DNA from: a virus
Taxonomy: Duplodnaviria > Caudoviricetes
Strand: one strand, 5' to 3'
Length of the DNA stretch: 39,326 nt
IMG/VR virus record: IMGVR_UViG_3300009095_000033
Location: 1-39,326 of that record
Both the position numbers and the translations under genes were made by a program. The notes beneath the pieces are model-generated. The model was not told the origin of the DNA. It made no database searches and saw only the letters and a list, made by a program, of their open reading frames with translations. This document shows, in pieces, positions 3,195 to 37,742 of the stretch; positions within the stretch are counted from its first letter, which is position 1, and each line of letters opens with the position of its first letter.

Positions 3195-3578
3195 TCAGAG
3201 GTCGATGAGCTGGAGCGCGCGCAGCACTGCGCCGACGGTGCGGACGAACAGATCGTCTTTGGCGCGCTGCGCCGGCGGCAGCTCATCGTATGGCACGAGG
3301 CACGGGTGCGTCTTCTTCCCCGGGTCTTTGTCGGGCCCGTACGTCCAGCCGTGCTCGAGCTTGTGCCGCATCCAGCTCGCGTGACTCTCACGCGGCCCGT
3401 TACCAGCGATGACGCCGGCGACGCCCTCACGGCAGCTCGCGCGCTGCCACTCGGGCGCGCCCTCCCACGGCGGCTGGGACGCGTCGCCAATCGCAAGGCA
3501 GTAGGCGCGATTGACCTCGTGCGCTGCTCGCGCCGCGGCCTCGACCACGCTCGCGGAAATCTCCGGTGCCTCACTCAT
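3195..3578 (-). CDS. RyR domain-containing protein
   Basis: HASWMRHKLEHGWTYGPDKDPGKKTHPCLVPYDELPPAQRAKD matches the RyR-domain signature. Confidence 0.85.
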   Translation of the reverse strand: MSEAPEISASVVEAAARAAHEVNRAYCLAIGDASQPPWEGAPEWQRASCREGVAGVIAGNGPRESHASWMRHKLEHGWTYGPDKDPGKKTHPCLVPYDELPPAQRAKDDLFVRTVGAVLRALQLIDL

Positions 3579-3754
3579 TCGCTCCCAGCTTGCCCGAACC
3601 GCCGCCAGAGCGCCACAGAAGCCCCGCAATCGCCCCTGACCTAGCCTGGGCCCAGTGGCCTCTTGCCGCCAGCCGCGAGGTCAATGGCCCGGTGCGCGAG
3701 CTGCCCCCTCGCTCCTACCTGCCCCGTTCCCGCCGCCCCCTTCGACCACCGCAA

Positions 3755-5845: not shown

Positions 5846-7356
5846 TGCTCGACCGCTCCGTCTACAAGGCGAGCGCGTGGGGCCTTCGCTTCCACCAGTG
5901 CGCAGCTGACGAAGTCCTCGGCGGAGGCGCCGCGGGCGGGGGCAAGAGCATCGCTCTCCTCTTCGACCCGCTCGTTACGCAAGCCATCGTCGAGCAAGCG
6001 CGGGTCACGGGCCAGTTCATCGACGAGTTCCCCGAATGGCTCGCCGATCTCTGCCGGAAGCACCCGATCCGGGCCGGAGAGAGCGAGGGCCACGCGCTGC
6101 ACATGCGCAAAAACCTAACCCTGCTCCGAGAGAACATGGATCGCGCCGAGCGCATGTTCCCGAAGTTCGACCCGGGCGCCGAATACAACCGAGAGTTTCA
6201 CCGATGGACCTTCTCCAGCGGCTACAAGTTCACGTTCGGTCACTGCCCCGAAGAGTCATCGTACAAGAACTATCTTTCCAGCCAGTTCACCCATTTTGGA
6301 GTCGATGAATCCAGCGAAATGTCCGAACTGAGCGCCGACGAGGTGAGCGCGCGCGTGCGCTCCGCTGACCCGGTGCTCAAGTACCTTCTGCGCGTTCGGT
6401 ACGTCAGCAACCCCGCTCCCGGTTGGCTCAAGACGCGCTTCGTCGACCCGCATCCCGACGGCAACGTCACGCTGAAGGTGAAGGTTCCCGATCCGGAGAC
6501 CGGCGAGACCCACATCCGCACGCGCGTCTTCCTGCCCGCCAAGCTCGACGACAACCCCGACAAGTCGTTCGCTGCGCAGTACAGGAAGACGCTGCTCAGC
6601 AAGCCCGCTCACATGCGGGCTCGGTACCTGTATGGCGACTGGAACGCGCTTCAGGGCGCGTTCTTCGAAGACGACTTCATCAAGGACGTTCACGAGATCG
6701 AGCCGTTCAAGGTCCCGCGAGACTGGCCCAAGTTCCGCGCCATGGACTGGGGTTACAAGGCGCCCGGCACCATCGGCTGGTTCACGCTCGACCCGGACGA
6801 CCGCCTCTATCAGATCTTCGAGTTCAACTTCCGGCTGATGCGTGACTCGGAGGTCGCCGATCGCGTCATCGAGATCGAGAAGGGCTTCGGGTTCTGGGAT
6901 GACCGAGACCGATGCAGCCGCCTCACGGGCGTGGCCGACACGCAGCTGTGGGAAGAGCGCGGTGACTCGGGCCTGAGCAAAGCCCAGGTGTTTCATGAGA
7001 AAGGCGTCTTCTGGACGCCCGCCGACAAGGCCAGCATTCAGCGCAACGCCGAGCGCATCGGCGAGCGCCTGCGCGATCACGACGACAAGCGCCCGCCGGG
7101 GCTGCTGTTCTTCAAGGGCTACACGCGCAAGACGATTCAGATGCTCGCGGGCATCAACGTCGACCCGAACGATTCGCTCATCCCCAACAAGAAGAGCCCG
7201 CTCAAGCACTGGTTCGATATGCTCGGGTACGCTGCTGCGCGCGCGAGCCGCGGCCGGGAGTCCATCCCGATGAAACCGCACCGCTTCGACCGCTACGAGA
7301 GAGACGACGACAACGAGCCGGCGGAAACGTCGGGAGGATTCGGGTACGGCACATGA
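5845..7356 (+). CDS. terL: terminase large subunit
   Basis: Walker A GGAAGGGKS, Walker B FGVDE, SNP coupling motif, nuclease motifs AMDWGY and HWFDMLGY. Confidence 0.95.
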   Translation: MLDRSVYKASAWGLRFHQCAADEVLGGGAAGGGKSIALLFDPLVTQAIVEQARVTGQFIDEFPEWLADLCRKHPIRAGESEGHALHMRKNLTLLRENMDRAERMFPKFDPGAEYNREFHRWTFSSGYKFTFGHCPEESSYKNYLSSQFTHFGVDESSEMSELSADEVSARVRSADPVLKYLLRVRYVSNPAPGWLKTRFVDPHPDGNVTLKVKVPDPETGETHIRTRVFLPAKLDDNPDKSFAAQYRKTLLSKPAHMRARYLYGDWNALQGAFFEDDFIKDVHEIEPFKVPRDWPKFRAMDWGYKAPGTIGWFTLDPDDRLYQIFEFNFRLMRDSEVADRVIEIEKGFGFWDDRDRCSRLTGVADTQLWEERGDSGLSKAQVFHEKGVFWTPADKASIQRNAERIGERLRDHDDKRPPGLLFFKGYTRKTIQMLAGINVDPNDSLIPNKKSPLKHWFDMLGYAAARASRGRESIPMKPHRFDRYERDDDNEPAETSGGFGYGT

Positions 7357-7868
7357 TGATCTGTGGGCTCGACCTGAGCCTGACCGCGAGCGCGATCGTC
7401 TGCGTGCCCACCGACTGGGATGGGGATTGGAAGCGGGTACGCTCCCATGTCGTCGGTCAATCTCTTCCGCGCTCTGCCAACGACCACGAGCGGGTACGTC
7501 GCTGCGAGAGCATCGCGAAAACACTGACCCAATACGCTCGCTCTCGAGGCGTTTCCGAGGCCTGGTTCGAGAGCTACGCCTACGGTCTTCGGACCAGCGC
7601 TCACAGCCTCGGGGAGCTCGGTGGCATCGTGCGTCTGGTGATGGATCAGTCAAACATCGCGCTGCGCACGGCCAACATGTCCACGGCGCGCAAGCTGCTG
7701 CTCGGCAAGGTTCCACGCAAAGACGCCAAGGGCGCGTGTCACGAGGCGCTGCTCGAGGCGGGGCGGCCTGCATGGTCGAAGGACGAGACCGATGCTTTCG
7801 TGGCGGCGAATCTGGGTCTGAGCGAGCACCCTGGCGCCTACTGCTTCGCTTCTGAGGCGCGGGCATGA
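7353..7868 (+). CDS. ruvC: RuvC-like Holliday junction resolvase
   Basis: ICGLDLSLTASA, WFES, LGELGGIVRL and DETDA supply the D/E/DxxD catalytic set. Confidence 0.85.
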   Translation: MMICGLDLSLTASAIVCVPTDWDGDWKRVRSHVVGQSLPRSANDHERVRRCESIAKTLTQYARSRGVSEAWFESYAYGLRTSAHSLGELGGIVRLVMDQSNIALRTANMSTARKLLLGKVPRKDAKGACHEALLEAGRPAWSKDETDAFVAANLGLSEHPGAYCFASEARA

Positions 7869-28020: not shown

Positions 28021-28397
28021 TGGCTCTCACACTTGGCAACCCCGATACGTTTGCGGACGCGGCCCGCAACGCTCAAGCGGACGCCGTTGACGCGCTGGTT
28101 GAGAGCGGGAACATCGTGTTCCGCGCGACGAACGACTCGGGCACCATCCTCGCGGAGTTCGACTTGCAGAACCCGGCGTTCGGTAGCGCCAGCTCCGGCA
28201 CCATCACGCTCGCTGGCACCACGTTGAGCGACACGGCCCCCGCGGGCTCGGCGACGGCCGTCGCGCGCTGGCAGCTGCGCACCTCGGGAGACGCCGCGAT
28301 CATGAGTGGACCCATCACCGGCAGCGACACGATCACGAGCGGACAGACCGTCAACCTGACCGCGTTCAGCATCACCTGGCCGTCGTCGTCGTCCTGA
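28020..28397 (+). CDS. tail-fibre-associated structural protein
   Basis: ARNAQADA...LAEFDL.NPAF...ITSGQTVNLTAFSIT, a beta-sandwich type seen in phage tail regions. Confidence 0.7.
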   Translation: MALTLGNPDTFADAARNAQADAVDALVESGNIVFRATNDSGTILAEFDLQNPAFGSASSGTITLAGTTLSDTAPAGSATAVARWQLRTSGDAAIMSGPITGSDTITSGQTVNLTAFSITWPSSSS

Positions 28398-28408
28398 GGT
28401 AGCCCGGC

Positions 28409-29722
28409 GTGGCGTACATCAGCCACACCGCGAGCGCCACGACCGGGCGCACCGAGACGATCGCGGCCAACTGCGATCTCGTCGTCGTTGCCGTCATCCA
28501 CTTTGGGGAAACAGGCGCCATCGATTGTGAGCTCGGCGGAACGGCGCTCACGCTCGCCACCGACGATAACCCCTACGTCAAGATCTTCTACCGGCTGAAC
28601 CCGGCGGCGGGCGCTCAGACGCTGGACTTCGAGCTGAATCAGATCAGCTCGGTCGTGTGCGCTCAGTACAGCGACATCGAGTCGTTTCAGTCGGCGCAGC
28701 AGGCGAGCGCAGGCAGCGCCAACTACAGCCCGAGTGGCGCCGGGCTCATCGTGCACGCGATCAGCGCGACGAGCGCCGGGACGCCGGTCGCGGACACCAA
28801 CGAGCGCTTCGACGGTGGCACGGGCGAGTGGTACGGCGACCGCATCGTGACGGGCGCCGGCACCGTCAACGTCGGCGCGACGATCAGCGATCCGGACTAC
28901 GCGGGCGCCATCTTCCTGGCGCCATCCGAGGAGCCCGAGGAAGTCGACGCGAGCGGCACCCCGACTGCCGCTGCCCCGACCGCCTCGGGTAGCGCGAGCG
29001 TCGTCGTCTCGAGCTCGGGCGCCTCCACCGCGGCTGCCCCCACCGCCAGCGGGTCAGCGTCGCCCGTTGTGGCGTCAAGCGGCGCCGTAAGCGGGCCCGC
29101 GCCGAGCGCATCAGGAGCGGCGAGCGCGGTCGTCTCTGCCGCCGGGACACTGTCTGCTCTCACCCCTGGGGCCTCCGGCAGCTCCAGCGCGGTCGTGGGT
29201 GCCTCGGGCGCGCCATCCGCGGCGCCGCCCACTGCCACGGGGGCAGCCGAGGGCGAGGCCGTTGACCCGGAGGCATCCGGCTCCGTGTCGGCGCCTGCCC
29301 CTGGTGCCGCGGGCTCAGCGTCGGTCGATGTCGCCGCCAGCGGCTCCACAGTCGCCGCGGCGCCGAGCGCCAGCGCGGGACTGGGCGTAGTGGTCAGCGC
29401 GTCCGGAGCCACCGATGCCATCGCCCCGGGAGCCGCCGGAAGCTCCAGCGTGGTCGTCGGCGCATCGGGTGCAGTGGCGGCCGCTCAACCGATAGCGAGC
29501 GGTTCGGCTGTCGACCCGGACGCATTGGTGTCGCGGCTCAGGGCAACCGCCAGCGCCACCGTCCCCCAGGTCAGCGCGCGCGCCACTCGCGCGGTATCAT
29601 CAGCGGCAGCGGTCTCGACCCAGATCGCAGCGCGCACCACTCGTGCGGTATCATCATCGGCAGCGGTCTCGACCCAGATCGCAGCGTCCACGCCCGGCGG
29701 CGGGAAGCTCTCGGAGGGCTAA
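28409..29722 (+). CDS. tail fibre / adhesin with Ala-Ser-Gly repeat stalk
   Basis: GAGG RBS; beta-rich N-terminal domain, then repeats of VxASGxxxAxAPxAxGS. Confidence 0.7.
   Translation: MAYISHTASATTGRTETIAANCDLVVVAVIHFGETGAIDCELGGTALTLATDDNPYVKIFYRLNPAAGAQTLDFELNQISSVVCAQYSDIESFQSAQQASAGSANYSPSGAGLIVHAISATSAGTPVADTNERFDGGTGEWYGDRIVTGAGTVNVGATISDPDYAGAIFLAPSEEPEEVDASGTPTAAAPTASGSASVVVSSSGASTAAAPTASGSASPVVASSGAVSGPAPSASGAASAVVSAAGTLSALTPGASGSSSAVVGASGAPSAAPPTATGAAEGEAVDPEASGSVSAPAPGAAGSASVDVAASGSTVAAAPSASAGLGVVVSASGATDAIAPGAAGSSSVVVGASGAVAAAQPIASGSAVDPDALVSRLRATASATVPQVSARATRAVSSAAAVSTQIAARTTRAVSSSAAVSTQIAASTPGGGKLSEG
29583..29686 (+). repeat. 54-bp tandem duplication (18 aa)
   Basis: CCACTCG(C/T)GCGGTATCATCA(G/T)CGGCAGCGGTCTCGACCCAGATCGCAGCG at 29583 and 29637. 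Confidence 0.9.
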
Positions 29723-30060
29723 ATGGCAACCATCGGCACCACGATCACGTTCTCGGCGACCTTCGTCGACTCCAGCGGTTCAGCCGCCGACCCTGACACC
29801 GTCGAGTTCTTCCTGCGCGAGAGCATCGACGGCACCGAGCTCGAATGGACGTACAAGGCCGACCCCACCGAGGTCACCGACTACCCCGAGGACGCGAACC
29901 CGGTCGTGCGTGACAGCGCGGGCGTCTACCACGTGGCTTGGGTCGCGCGCAAAGCGGAGCGGCACATCGGCCACTTCAAGGCCAGCGGCACCGTTCCGGA
30001 CCAGAGCGCCGAGACCACCTATCTCGTGCGGCACACCGAGGTCGAGGCAGCGGTCGAGTA

Positions 30061-30061
<1 letters not shown>
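29723..30061 (+). CDS. small Ig-like tail-associated protein
   Basis: GGAGG RBS; [14 protein letters not shown]...DP, SAGVYHV. Confidence 0.65.
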
Positions 30062-32205
<2,144 letters not shown>

Positions 32206-34234: not shown

Positions 34235-34743
34235 AACGCAACCCTTTCCATCGGCAAACTGTCCCTGATCATCTGAAGGGCAGTCTTCTCTATCATCCGC
34301 GCCCTCTCGCGCGTGAACCCGAATTTCTTCCCCACCTCTTCGAGCGTCATGTCGTGCGCGAACCGCATCCGGATCACATCCTGATATCGCTCAGGCAAAG
34401 CGGCAAGCGCCTTTGTGACTCCAGAGGTCAGCGGCCCCATTTCGCTCGGCTCGGTTTGCTGCTCGGGTGGGAAGTTGTCTTCCCCTTCGCGAAAGACGCC
34501 GTTGGCCCCCACCCGCTTCGGTATCGCGACCGGCGCGATCATGCTGGAAATGTTGCGGTAGGCAGCGCGCTTGACCGCGTAGCCTACCGCGGTGCTCGGC
34601 GCGCACGGCAGCGCGGCCTCGTCGCTCGTGGCGATCCATGACTCCAGCATCGCGTCCTGCACCAGGTCATCCCAGGAATACGACGGTGAGTCAGCCCACC
34701 GATACCGCCGGCACAGGCGCTTCACTAGGCCCTCGTGTTTCAC
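34231..34743 (-). CDS. sigma-70 family RNA polymerase sigma factor
   Basis: Region 2 GLVKRLCRRY...DDLVQDA; region 4 LPERYQDVIRMRF...MTLEEVGKKFGFTRERARMIEKTAL; GTG at 34743. Confidence 0.85.
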   Translation of the reverse strand: MKHEGLVKRLCRRYRWADSPSYSWDDLVQDAMLESWIATSDEAALPCAPSTAVGYAVKRAAYRNISSMIAPVAIPKRVGANGVFREGEDNFPPEQQTEPSEMGPLTSGVTKALAALPERYQDVIRMRFAHDMTLEEVGKKFGFTRERARMIEKTALQMIRDSLPMERVAL

Positions 34744-36389
34744 TGCTCTTCTCCTTCGTCCTTGTGCAGGTCCCCCTTGTGCCAGAGGTCGAGCGCCAGC
34801 CCGAAACGCATGGCGGCGTTCCGCAGCGCGTCGCCGATGACCTCCTTTTCCCGAGCCCCTACGTCCTGGTACGCTTTCTTTTCGGCGTGCCCGTATCCGA
34901 GGCGGGTGACGCCGCAGACCGTCAGGCGAATCCACAGGCCGCCGCTCGCGTCGAACAGCGGTAGCCCCTCCGACGAGAGCGCCGCCGGTTCCCACGTCCA
35001 GCCAGGATCAGCGTCGAGAAGCCGGTCTGTCGTCGCGGCGTGGCCGACGTAGTCCAGGTGGACGATCCGAGGATGGTGCCACCCGCCGCAGATGGTGCAA
35101 TTCCGCTTCTCGTTCGGGGGGCACATGTTCTGTGCCTTGGTGCCCTTCGGGAGCTTGCTGACCAGGTGGTCAGGGAACGGCTCACGAAGCAGAGCCAGGC
35201 CTTCGGGGCGGCGAGTCCGGGTGCCGGCTGTAGGTGCACTTGCCGGCGGCGTGGCAGCCGAGGGGCGAGACGCAGCCGCTGGGGTAGGGGCAGGGGCCCG
35301 GGTCGGCGTAGCGCTCGACGTCGGCTCTGTCGGGCGGCTGGGGGCCGTAGACGTCCCAGCGGTGGGTCTCGGTGTTGTAGCGGTTGGCGTGCGGGTAGCT
35401 GACGCTGATGTCGAAGCAGAGCTGCGCTCCTGGGCTGCCCGTCGCAGGTGCTCGTCGGCTTTTGGGTCAGCGCCGATCAGCGGTGCGGCCGGCGCCGTCA
35501 TCTGCTCGCGCTCCTCGGCCAGCTCCTCGGGCTCGGGCTCCCAGGCCGTCGTCTTGGTTCCTGACTCGGGTGTGCGCCGGTACTCGAGATAGCTCATCGG
35601 GTCGCGCTCGAGCTCGACGTCGGTGCGCAGGGTGGTCAGCTCCAGCCAGCGGTTCAACTCTGCCATCCCCGCCGCGAAGTAGCGCCACTTCGCGTTCGGC
35701 TCTTTCCCCGCTTCCGCCGCTGCGGAGCACGCTGCGGTGCACGCCTCGATCATCGCCTGCGGCGTGCCGTAGGTGTTGATCAGCCACGCAGCGCTCTTCC
35801 ACCCCAGGTTTTTGATGCCCGGGATCGAGTCGCTGTCGTCCCCGTTGATCGCTTGCGCCAGCGCGAACTGGTCGGGTCGCACATCGTACTTCTTGCTCAC
35901 GTACTCGGGCCCACGGGGCTCGTAGCCGTCGCCCGTCGGCACCATGAGCCGCACCGTCTCCGAGACGCACTGGAGCAGGTCCTTGTCCTCTCCTACGATC
36001 CGGATGTCGTCGCACCCCGCCTCGCTGTAGACACGCGCCAGCGTCGCGATCACGTCGTCTGACTCCTGCCCCCTGCATCGCGCGAGCTGGTAGCCGTCCG
36101 CTTCGAGCCTGTCTAGCGTCCAGCGGATGATGTGTCCTTTCGCCGGGTCGCGGTCGCGCAGCTCCTTGTAGCCCTCGAATCGCTGCTTGCGCCAGTAGGG
36201 CGGCCAGTCCAGACAGACGACCACGCGCTCGACGCTGTCTCGCACGCTGGCGATCTGGTCGAGCGTGGCCTGCCCCGCGTCGTTGACCCCGCCGTCCTTG
36301 GCGCGGGCGTGGAAGTGCACGCTCAACAGCGAGCTGAAGTCGACCAGCGCGATTGACGCCGGCATGTCCGGGATGTTCACAGCTTGCAT
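34740..36389 (-). CDS. fusion of a 5'-3' (PolA-N/FEN-like) exonuclease and a Rad52/Sak-like single-strand annealing protein
   Basis: LVDFS, CLD..PYWRKQRFEGYK..R, ESDDVIATL, GEDKDLLQ, GDDSDSIPGIKNLGWKSA; then LREPFP, LDYVGHA.TTDRL, WTWEP, GVTRLGYG, KEVIGDALRNAAMRFGLALDLW. Confidence 0.85.
   Translation of the reverse strand: MQAVNIPDMPASIALVDFSSLLSVHFHARAKDGGVNDAGQATLDQIASVRDSVERVVVCLDWPPYWRKQRFEGYKELRDRDPAKGHIIRWTLDRLEADGYQLARCRGQESDDVIATLARVYSEAGCDDIRIVGEDKDLLQCVSETVRLMVPTGDGYEPRGPEYVSKKYDVRPDQFALAQAINGDDSDSIPGIKNLGWKSAAWLINTYGTPQAMIEACTAACSAAAEAGKEPNAKWRYFAAGMAELNRWLELTTLRTDVELERDPMSYLEYRRTPESGTKTTAWEPEPEELAEEREQMTAPAAPLIGADPKADEHLRRAAQERSSASTSASATRTPTATTPRPTAGTSTAPSRPTEPTSSATPTRAPAPTPAAASRPSAATPPASAPTAGTRTRRPEGLALLREPFPDHLVSKLPKGTKAQNMCPPNEKRNCTICGGWHHPRIVHLDYVGHAATTDRLLDADPGWTWEPAALSSEGLPLFDASGGLWIRLTVCGVTRLGYGHAEKKAYQDVGAREKEVIGDALRNAAMRFGLALDLWHKGDLHKDEGEEQ
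35182..35466 (-). other. candidate -1 programmed frameshift and overprinted 94-codon frame
   Basis: In-frame slippery C_CCA_AAA at 35466-35460 directly after a -1-frame TGA; -1 frame stays open to TGA at 35182 and has no start codon. Confidence 0.5.
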
Positions 36390-36949
36390 TTTTCCCTCTC
36401 GATCTCTTGTTGCAGCGCGGCGAAGTCGTCGCGCCAGGGTTGATCCATCAGCTCGTGCGCCGTGTTCTCCAGCAGGCGCATGGCGGTGCCGAGTCGCAGC
36501 TCCAGCGTATTGGCCTCGTCGCGAGTCTCCAGCAACCGTGTGCGCACACGCTGCAGCTCGGCCTTGTTCTCCAGGTGCCGAGCCTGATCGACGCTGCCGC
36601 GCGTGGCCTCATGCCGCGCCCTCTCTGCCTCGAGCTCTGCACGCGCCTGCGCCAGCTCTGTCTCGAGCAACCCGCGCATCGACGCGCCGGACTCGGCCAG
36701 CCGCGTCACGAGCTCTTTCGTCGGCCCCGCGGTGTTCAGGCCGCGAGCCGCGCACGCCTGCTCTAGCAGCTCGTGCACATCTTCGGCCGCGCGCTCGATC
36801 GCCATCGAGTCGGCGATGATCGTCTCCGCCCGCTCCTGCTCGGCCTCGATCATCTCCGCCCTGGTGGCCGCGAGCGAGCTCAGCACCGTGAGCGCCGTCC
36901 TCATCGTGTCGCGCTCCTGGTTGCGTAGGTTGTTCAGTTTGATCGTCAT
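36377..36949 (-). CDS. coiled-coil hypothetical protein
   Basis: ATGA-coupled; E/L/A/R heptads. Confidence 0.7.
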   Translation of the reverse strand: MTIKLNNLRNQERDTMRTALTVLSSLAATRAEMIEAEQERAETIIADSMAIERAAEDVHELLEQACAARGLNTAGPTKELVTRLAESGASMRGLLETELAQARAELEAERARHEATRGSVDQARHLENKAELQRVRTRLLETRDEANTLELRLGTAMRLLENTAHELMDQPWRDDFAALQQEIEREKCKL

Positions 36950-37323
36950 GTTGCTTTGCCCCCGGAGGTCCCGCACTCGCTGGCACGGACGGGCGCGTCG
37001 TCGGCGTGGATGATGAACCCGCTCGTTGACGCGCACAGCGCCACGCGCAGCCGCTCTTGCTCGGCCTCGGACCGCGCGAGCTTGGCTCGCAGCTCGTCCT
37101 TTTCCGCGTCGCGAACCTGCCAGTCATCCGCCAGAAGGTCCGTTTGGCTCGCTGTCCACGGGACCAGTGCGCCCTGGGACGTGCGCAAGTAGACGTAGGG
37201 GAGCGTCATCTTGCCCAGTACGCCCGGCTGCTGGAGCTCTAGATACTGGCCCGCGCCGTTCCAGCCACCGCGGGTGACCTGCTTTCCGTCCTTCAGTGCC
37301 CTGACGGCTTCTCCGATGTTCAT
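36946..37323 (-). CDS. tad2: DUF2829 / Thoeris anti-defence Tad2-family protein with C-terminal extension
   Basis: MNIGEAVRALKDGKQVTRGGWNG...PYVYLRTSQG.LVPWTASQTDLLADDW. Confidence 0.85.
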   Translation of the reverse strand: MNIGEAVRALKDGKQVTRGGWNGAGQYLELQQPGVLGKMTLPYVYLRTSQGALVPWTASQTDLLADDWQVRDAEKDELRAKLARSEAEQERLRVALCASTSGFIIHADDAPVRASECGTSGGKAT

Positions 37324-37328
37324 CTTGA

Positions 37329-37742
37329 TCACTTCTCTCCTCCTACAATCTCGGCCACCTCTTCGGCGGTCAGGTCGATGCGCGCGATCTCCTCGCACTG
37401 CCACGGGGTTTGCGCGCGCAGCGCCACGCTGGCGATCGTGAACAGACGGCCACGAGCATCAGGCTCGAATTCCGGCGGGTCGCCCTCGGGATCCCCGAAC
37501 TCGTCCTGGTACCAATCCTGCGCGCGCTCTATCCAATCGTTGACGACGCCCCACACCTCGGCGTCGCTCATCCGCTTGCGGCGCCAGGCGATCAGCGCGC
37601 GCGGGCCCGGGGCGAACATTCCCAGGGCCTCTCGTGGCGTATCGCTGCATCCGGTGTCGAACTCGCTGTCATCCCGGGCGTACCGCACGCTCCACAGCAC
37701 GGCGCCTGGCGCGGCTGCCAGGACTCGTTCGAGCGCGGTCAC
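37329..37742 (-). CDS. hypothetical protein
   Basis: GTGA-coupled, GAGG RBS. Confidence 0.65.
   Translation of the reverse strand: MTALERVLAAAPGAVLWSVRYARDDSEFDTGCSDTPREALGMFAPGPRALIAWRRKRMSDAEVWGVVNDWIERAQDWYQDEFGDPEGDPPEFEPDARGRLFTIASVALRAQTPWQCEEIARIDLTAEEVAEIVGGEK

Follow-up and report, generated by a model that had tools for sequence, protein, structure and literature searches.

A phage gene coding for a FEN/PolA-type 5′ nuclease fused to a predicted Rad52/Sak-fold annealase

The fused gene P0001 and its continuity

We analyzed a single virus record (Duplodnaviria; Caudoviricetes), IMGVR_UViG_3300009095_000033 of IMG/VR, whose 39,326 bases are referred to below as the window; its completeness is estimated at 82%. 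The subject of the analysis is one gene, P0001 (Table 1), which codes for a FEN/PolA-type 5′ nuclease followed, after a long linker, by a predicted Rad52/Sak-fold annealase. The terminase, portal, head-closure and tail genes of the phage lie on the plus strand. P0001 is surrounded by small minus-strand genes, and a purine-rich ribosome-binding site (36390-36400) is found immediately 5′ of it. A nuclease-annealase fusion had been proposed at this locus from the sequence alone (the original prediction), and both domains were indeed located within one 549-codon open reading frame (ORF). Published work is cited below by PMC accession, as far as the accessible part of each article goes.

It is extremely improbable that an error of assembly or sequencing joined two separate genes. 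Frame continuity was judged on assembled contigs and not on raw reads, which leaves some room for such an error. Against it, two close relatives from two other studies, X2 and X3, each carry the region 35150-35900 (the whole linker) inside one contig, with a net indel of +6 that keeps the frame. The X2 contig spans 33508-36928 and differs from the phage record at 137 letters. No contig spanning the fused gene was found in the 69% that was read of X1, the run that may be the source of the record. Among the data sets listed as carrying the sequence, none is of RNA. The 90% identity cluster of P0001 contains full-length members of 549 and 551 residues, derived from ENA and Logan. Moreover, among 120 listed of 382 matches the nuclease-then-annealase layout recurs in at least 43 sequence clusters, at 38-52% overall identity. 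The fusion is therefore real and widespread. Source databases label the fused genes only as ‘5′-3′ exonuclease’, so that the annealase half is easily missed.

Table 1. Features of the fused gene, with positions in the window
Feature	Position	Strand	Basis
Whole fused gene P0001	34740..36389	-	One ATG ORF, 549 codons
FEN/PolA-type 5′ nuclease, aa 10-275	35565..36362	-	Pfam, Taq polymerase alignment, fold match, residue conservation
Linker, aa 276-393: acidic stretch, predicted helix 309-330, disordered P/A/S/T	35211..35564	-	Model
Linker motif IG[A/K]DPxA, aa 305-315, leading into the helix	35445..35477	-	Conservation
Stop-free -1 frame, 94 codons, no start codon, Cys/His-rich	35182..35466	-	Frame scan
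Predicted Rad52/Sak-fold annealase core, aa 394-545	34755..35210	-	PHROG 3290, model fold matches
Cys/His insert, C423, C431, C434, H438/H439	35073..35123	-	Conservation

The nuclease domain

The N-terminal half of P0001 matches both parts of the 5′ nuclease in Pfam above their cut-offs: the N-terminal PIN-like domain (5_3_exonuc_N, aa 13-168, E 2e-18, 67 bits against a cut-off of 34.3) and the C-terminal H3TH/SAM domain (5_3_exonuc, aa 170-265, E 5e-11, 43.3 bits against 40). Its sequence can be aligned to the Taq polymerase 5′ domain (E 1e-19), and the best fold matches of the full-length model are Mycobacterium smegmatis FenA (Foldseek E 6e-17), ExoIX and T5 FEN. All acidic metal-binding residues and all basic or aromatic residues of the arch are present. 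These thirteen positions (D17, D61, R67, Y74, K75, R78, E109, D111, D112, D135, D137, D184 and D187), whose catalytic roles we take to be those known in the FEN/PolA family, are conserved in 123-125 of the 125 fused proteins. The domain is of FEN/PolA type, as had been proposed, and belongs to the bacterial PolA branch of the FEN superfamily. Activity of the enzyme is very likely.

The annealase domain

Residues 395-545 match PHROG 3290 (‘single strand annealing protein’) with an E-value of 8e-48. The core ends four residues before the stop codon, leaving no C-terminal tail. In contrast to the nuclease, Pfam found nothing in the C-terminal part of P0001, neither Rad52_Rad22 (PF04098) nor SSAP_Sak (PF06378). 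Among 110 homologous domains, PF04098 was weakly matched by 42 (E up to 0.1, best 4e-4) and PF06378 by one; a sequence profile reached RAD52 weakly (E 1.6).

Since the sequence evidence is weak, the assignment of the fold relies on predicted structure. The model of aa 393-549 has a predicted local distance difference test score (pLDDT) of 91.6, and its core consists of a β-hairpin, a helix, a three-stranded sheet and a helix. The closest structures are Mgm101 (Z 10.7, root mean square deviation 3.3, 115 aligned residues), RAD52 (Z 9.5, 3.5, 118 residues) and Sak of phage 80-alpha (Z 9.5, 3.5, 112 residues). The next folds, unrelated double-stranded RNA-binding domains (Z ≤6.1) and Red-beta (Z 4.2), score well below. 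All nine Foldseek matches with E <0.001 are RAD52 or Mgm101. The C-terminal domain is therefore predicted to adopt the fold of the Rad52/Sak branch; the suspicion that it might not be Rad52-like found no support.

Two further observations concern the same domain. R523 and R528, kept in 109 of 110 homologs, are located in a helix that aligns with RAD52 K152/R153/R156 (pairs R523-K152, N524-R153 and R528-R156, in the weak alignment with E 1.6); in RAD52 these residues contact single-stranded DNA (PMC13110880). In a three-copy model the domain is predicted to self-assemble head-to-tail, scoring 0.65 against 0.00 for the best of three controls; at least 79% of contacts are common to the runs, and pLDDT is at least 82. 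Of 30 solved pairs 20 attained the assembly mark, as did one of 23 single chains, and here the pass may stem from likeness to the solved RAD52 and Sak structures.

The domain also carries a Cys/His insert (aa 423-439). Among 43 fused proteins C431, C434, H438 and H439 are invariant and C423 occurs in 42; among the 110 domain homologs C431 is found in 104 and C434 in 106. The insert probably binds zinc. Stand-alone annealase homologs (P0099, P0102, P0104, P0109, P0113, P0116; P0056) have precomputed Hint/intein domains (PF13403, PF14890) or, in one case, a fused HNH domain.

Exchange of the annealase domain

The same type of nuclease is also found fused to a RecT-type domain, in at least 81 proteins among 120 listed of 371 matches. 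Pfam RecT scored above its cut-off in two of eight such proteins scanned and more weakly in the other six. In a FastTree phylogeny of 137 nuclease domains the two forms are interleaved, with a minimum of 11 changes of the Sak/RecT label (the outgroup consisted of 10 PolA domains only, hence the root is uninformative about other phage FENs). A single clade of Sak-fused nucleases was rejected by the approximately unbiased (AU) test (p 2e-64) on 30 sequences hand-chosen to cover the tree. The P0001 nuclease itself shares 55% identity with RecT-fused nucleases, against a maximum of 43% with the remaining Sak-fused nucleases. The most closely related nucleases with different partners, those of P0011 (Sak) and P0184 (RecT), are 91% identical. 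Sak/RecT sister pairs are alike through the linker, right up to the annealase border. The annealase has thus been exchanged repeatedly. The annealase tree (support 68) is compatible with one origin as well as with several.

Two other layouts occur. The reverse order, annealase before nuclease, is represented by a single cluster (P0044, P0124). A split form occurs at L004 (5926-7546), where a stand-alone annealase with a tail is followed, four bases after its stop codon, by a FEN gene whose product is only 32-38% identical to the fused nucleases. Of 154 unfused annealase loci, L004 alone showed a FEN gene within the flanking DNA retrieved, where it lies directly downstream. P0071, an apparent annealase-YqaJ fusion, was set aside as a probable frameshift artefact: it is a singleton, and its middle part looks out of frame. 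In 6 of 12 records, which include Sak-fused, RecT-fused and split forms, the terminase is 59-67% identical to that of the present phage (63% for L004); hence these forms largely belong to one phage group. Integrase genes near the fusion (L019, 1044-2888; L082, 2435-4027) imply that some of these phages are probably temperate. In G406, the record of L007, the terminase match (28306-30834) falls into two parts within one 861-residue open frame, which suggests an intein-sized insert.

Tail loss and neighboring recombination genes

Stand-alone annealase homologs, which are common, have a tail after the core with a median length of 100 residues (22-207, n=113). The corresponding median is 13 residues in Sak-fused proteins (0-15, n=46) and three in RecT-fused proteins (0-12, n=81). 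In other words, all 127 C-terminal fusions stop 0-15 residues past the annealase core.

We also asked which recombination genes accompany the annealase. YqaJ, PDDEXK_1 and PolA polymerase domains were absent from all 10 records with a fusion or split pair (four at least 90% complete, six less than 90%). In contrast, at 11 of 44 stand-alone viral loci a nuclease gene (YqaJ, PDDEXK_1, RecE-like or PHROG-298) lies no more than two genes away, and six of the 44 have a gene for SSB, a protein that binds single-stranded DNA. This survey covered 150 of 168 neighbors with rough gene calls. The difference indicates that the FEN domain occupies the exonuclease slot. PHROG 10477, labeled ‘exonuclease’, adjoins 13 of the 44 loci (e.g. 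L038, L040, L043 and L135, as the gene after the annealase). It was not counted as a nuclease, being Ala/Glu/Lys-rich and helical with no nuclease motif by eye; presumably it is Gp157/Gam-like.

The linker and its -1 frame

Linker length varies from 38 to 272 residues across the fusions. In P0001 pLDDT drops below 50 at aa 277-285, 298-307 and 328-393, and P, A, S and T make up 86% of aa 323-393. The linker motif occurs in 38 of the 46 sequences with a Sak partner and in 49 of the 81 with a RecT partner.

The stop-free -1 frame begins at a slippery-type heptamer of the form X XXY YYZ (35460-35466), which consists of two rare codons and is one of three such sites in 4942 codons scanned. Over aa 316-395 third-position G+C falls in frame 0, whereas in the -1 frame it is 0.93-1.0. 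This shift is partly explained by P/A/S/T codons having C in the second position. Nevertheless, 27 of the 71 codons of aa 323-393 end in A or T against 8.6 expected for identical residues (z 6.7), and the mean log p of codon use is closer to that of the nuclease domain (-3.67) in the -1 frame (-3.73) than in frame 0 (-4.21). Most likely, the linker is DNA of a gene captured out of frame, that is, a fossil and not a working frameshift. Similar frame-0 strings occur in RecT-fused relatives (core motif in 11 of 124), a comparison made at the protein level on 11 relatives. A scan of 15 of 64 parts of a viral collection found no DNA of relatives with a P/A/S/T linker.

A programmed -1 frameshift at the heptamer would add a second product to the scheme proposed below, namely the nuclease with about 92 Cys/His-rich residues and without the annealase. 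We consider this quite unlikely, and the same holds for the idea that the shorter product would set the nuclease-to-annealase ratio. The gene-like codon score and the excess of A/T-ending codons would fit such a frame, as would its start at a slippery heptamer of two rare codons, for which no variant occurs in X2, X3 and X5 among the variants listed. The codon pattern is, however, accounted for, with no need of a frameshift, by out-of-frame capture of a piece of another gene. Furthermore, of 18 substitutions in X2 and X3 within the -1 frame, 11 fall at third positions of frame 0 and only three at third positions of the -1 frame; many are radical in the -1 peptide while being mostly silent in frame 0. 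A stop-free -1 frame arose in 38% of synonymous resamplings, downstream RNA structure is not unusual (z 0.03-1.23), a homolog search with the -1 peptide found none, and other fused loci (L011, L015, L019 and L082) have ordinary frame-0 linkers.

Repeats and other genes of the genome

An intergenic element of 60-70 nt is present in four copies (463-532, 1229-1298, 1519-1588 and ~2015-2080), each between the stop codon of a small minus-strand gene and the next ribosome-binding site. It has an internal inverted repeat, and its 12-base core occurs five times with at most one mismatch (0.26 expected), including 2735-2746. The element looks like a regulatory cassette. P0001 had been suggested as a driver of repeat-bounded modules in this genome. 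Although the repeats do exist, a scan of metagenome contigs for them recovered only the phage's own contig and brought up no relative differing by gain or loss of a module between them. The sole gene-sized difference seen is that X2 and X3 have lost a Tad2-like gene, and no repeat was called at either end of it. A role of P0001 at the repeats is accordingly possible but unsupported.

The Tad2-like domain (Thoeris anti-defense; Pfam E 8e-24) is encoded at 36946-37404 (-), and the segment lacking in X2 and X3 (36929-37341) corresponds almost exactly to this gene. Directly downstream of P0001 lies a sigma-70-like phage gene (34231-34719, -); a sigma region-4 match is also found near the fusion in L007. 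Elsewhere in the window, a small gene at 3195-3629 (-) codes for an RyR domain (Pfam E 2e-12), and a match to PHROG 159 at 7353-7868 (+), between terminase and portal, bears the label ‘RuvC-like resolvase’, which is taken as a label only.

Host range and previous reports

Among the matches listed (150 of 347) in 401 genomes of the phylum of G001 there was no fused gene, the best being ORFs of PolA length. A search of two orders (301 and 192 genomes) at E 1e-30 did not recover the phage terminase. L122, a 5-kb contig with an identical protein, is present in a Thermomicrobiales bin; this is not counted as evidence for a host, and the contig may represent the same source DNA. Among cultured phages, none of 269 and none of 111 matching records cover 80% of the Sak or RecT fusion.

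The fusion is not described in the literature searched (subscription papers, supplements and InterPro architectures lie outside that search). The words ‘fused’ and ‘fusion’ are absent from the accessible main text of PMC8093625, PMC11611040, PMC11783212 and PMC12054835, although proteins of this kind could appear in supplements, namely those of PMC8093625, PMC11783212 and PMC12054835. The accessible parts of PMC5512222 and PMC7824862 contain nothing relevant to the fusion.

Proposed function and alternative explanations

On balance, we find it probable, if by no means certain, that P0001 is a one-chain single-strand-annealing recombinase, in which a 5′ nuclease is tethered to a Rad52-fold annealase; the activity is deduced from sequence and structural models. 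An annealase ring or filament would hold one nuclease per subunit on tethers of ~120 residues. At a DNA end, nick or gap, the nucleases would digest the 5′ strand, and the 3′ strand exposed in this way would go straight onto the annealase, to be paired there with its complement. Leftover 5′ flaps could then be trimmed by these nucleases as well, leaving the last steps to host polymerase and ligase. The covalent tether would stand in for the tail by which Red-beta-like proteins bind Exo, and the low processivity of FEN-family enzymes would be made up for by the many tethered copies. Likely uses of such a protein are the repair of phage genomes, the formation of concatemers and exchange among phages. 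A precedent comes from T7, whose recombination requires gp6, an enzyme of the FEN family that gp2.5 stimulates (PMC4124056).

Several observations weigh against the proposed recombinase. T7 gp6 is non-processive (PMC4124056), and removal of primers and flaps is another task of FEN-family enzymes. In the full-length model nuclease and annealase have no fixed position relative to each other (predicted template modeling score, pTM, 0.54). As the record is ~82% complete, its missing part might contain a separate exonuclease. The tail is a further point. In Red-beta it binds both Exo and the host SSB (PMC11611040), and Red-beta without it anneals but fails in recombination in vivo (PMC5052646); no obvious substitute for the SSB contact is present in the fusion. 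There is no SSB gene in this phage record, and 3 of the 10 fusion or split records have one.

The main alternative, less likely in our view, is that annealing comes first and trimming second: the nuclease would chiefly remove 5′ flaps that remain once partly homologous strands have annealed, or RNA primers and flaps at the replication fork, and host enzymes would resect the ends. The closest structures of the nuclease, FenA, ExoIX and the PolA 5′ domain, point in this direction; all three are flap and primer enzymes. L007 has primase and DnaB helicase genes within 3.5 kb upstream, although it is the only one of nine loci scanned with such neighbors. Flap removal after annealing as well as primer removal has been proposed for T7 gp6, which nonetheless acts on blunt ends 10- to 120-fold faster than it does on flaps (PMC4124056). 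The nucleases of 325 lambdoid Rec modules are Exo, RecE, DnaQ-like, HNH and RecB-like, with no FEN type in the part of the report accessible (PMC12315714). On the other hand, the FEN domain stands in the exonuclease slot, as the neighbor survey indicates. This alternative keeps the coupling of the two activities, and sequence cannot separate a resection from a trimming role. An incidental fusion of neighboring DNA-metabolism genes with no functional coupling is very unlikely. It would agree with a long, disordered linker of variable length, with the lack of predicted contact between the domains and with the split form in the related phage L004, but it is difficult to reconcile with a fusion that has outlasted 11 or more exchanges of the annealase, came about in either order and is invariably accompanied by tail loss when the annealase is C-terminal. 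In addition, a weak search among 232 short candidates found only one short stand-alone relative of the nuclease.

The proposed recombinase could be extended further, to a FEN chassis that takes up a Sak or RecT cassette, recombines double-stranded DNA without an Exo/SSB-binding tail and, through a -1 frameshift in the linker, may release a nuclease-only form. This extended version strikes us as rather unlikely. If it were true, a single gene would make a plug-in one-component recombinase and a portable recombineering tool.

Comparison with known systems

P0001 shares with RAD52, Mgm101 and 80-alpha Sak the predicted fold, predicted self-assembly and, as far as the weak alignment with RAD52 shows, basic residues of the groove helix. 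It differs from them in the Cys/His insert, the absence of a tail and the nuclease fusion, and is only 14-17% identical to them. Gp63 of Mycobacterium phage Marvin (PHROG 3290) is 53% identical over the domain, but it is a stand-alone protein adjoining the exonuclease gp62. In eukaryotic single-strand annealing, Exo1, a member of the FEN superfamily, and Rad52 are separate proteins that work with RPA and other factors. The two superfamilies and the pathway are thus the same, whereas the P0001 nuclease comes from the bacterial PolA branch. In T7, gp6 and gp2.5 are likewise separate, gp2.5 being an OB-fold SSB and not a Rad52-fold protein; T7 also has its own polymerase, and none was found in the fusion or split records. 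The likeness lies in the use of a FEN-family 5′ exonuclease, stimulated by its partner, for RecA-independent phage recombination (PMC4124056).

The best known phage pairs are lambda Exo with Red-beta and Rac RecE with RecT (PMC11611040; PMC7496540). As in Red and RecET, a 5′-3′ nuclease is combined in P0001 with a Rad52-superfamily annealase in a 1:1 ratio. In those systems, however, the partners are two proteins and the nuclease is a PD-(D/E)XK toroid, whereas P0001 is one chain with a FEN/PolA nuclease, lacks the C-terminal tail that binds Exo and SSB, and belongs to a family in which the annealase is exchangeable.

Recombineering is built on phage exonuclease-annealase pairs, whose portability is limited by the contacts that the annealase makes through its tail with its partner and SSB (PMC12054835, PMC11611040). 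The promise of a recombineering tool, raised in the original prediction, is kept as a possibility but weakened by the missing tail, which Red-beta needs in vivo (PMC5052646); lack of SSB contact is the weak point for any such use. At the same time, a tail-less family that exchanges its annealase is a natural experiment on tail function and on the handover from resection to annealing. The analysis supplies about 125 single-gene candidates, among which near-isogenic Sak/RecT pairs, with nucleases up to 91% identical, allow the annealase families to be compared. Compared with the known systems, in which both parts and the pathway are familiar, the single-chain, tail-less and swappable layout and the FEN partner are apparently undescribed in the literature searched.

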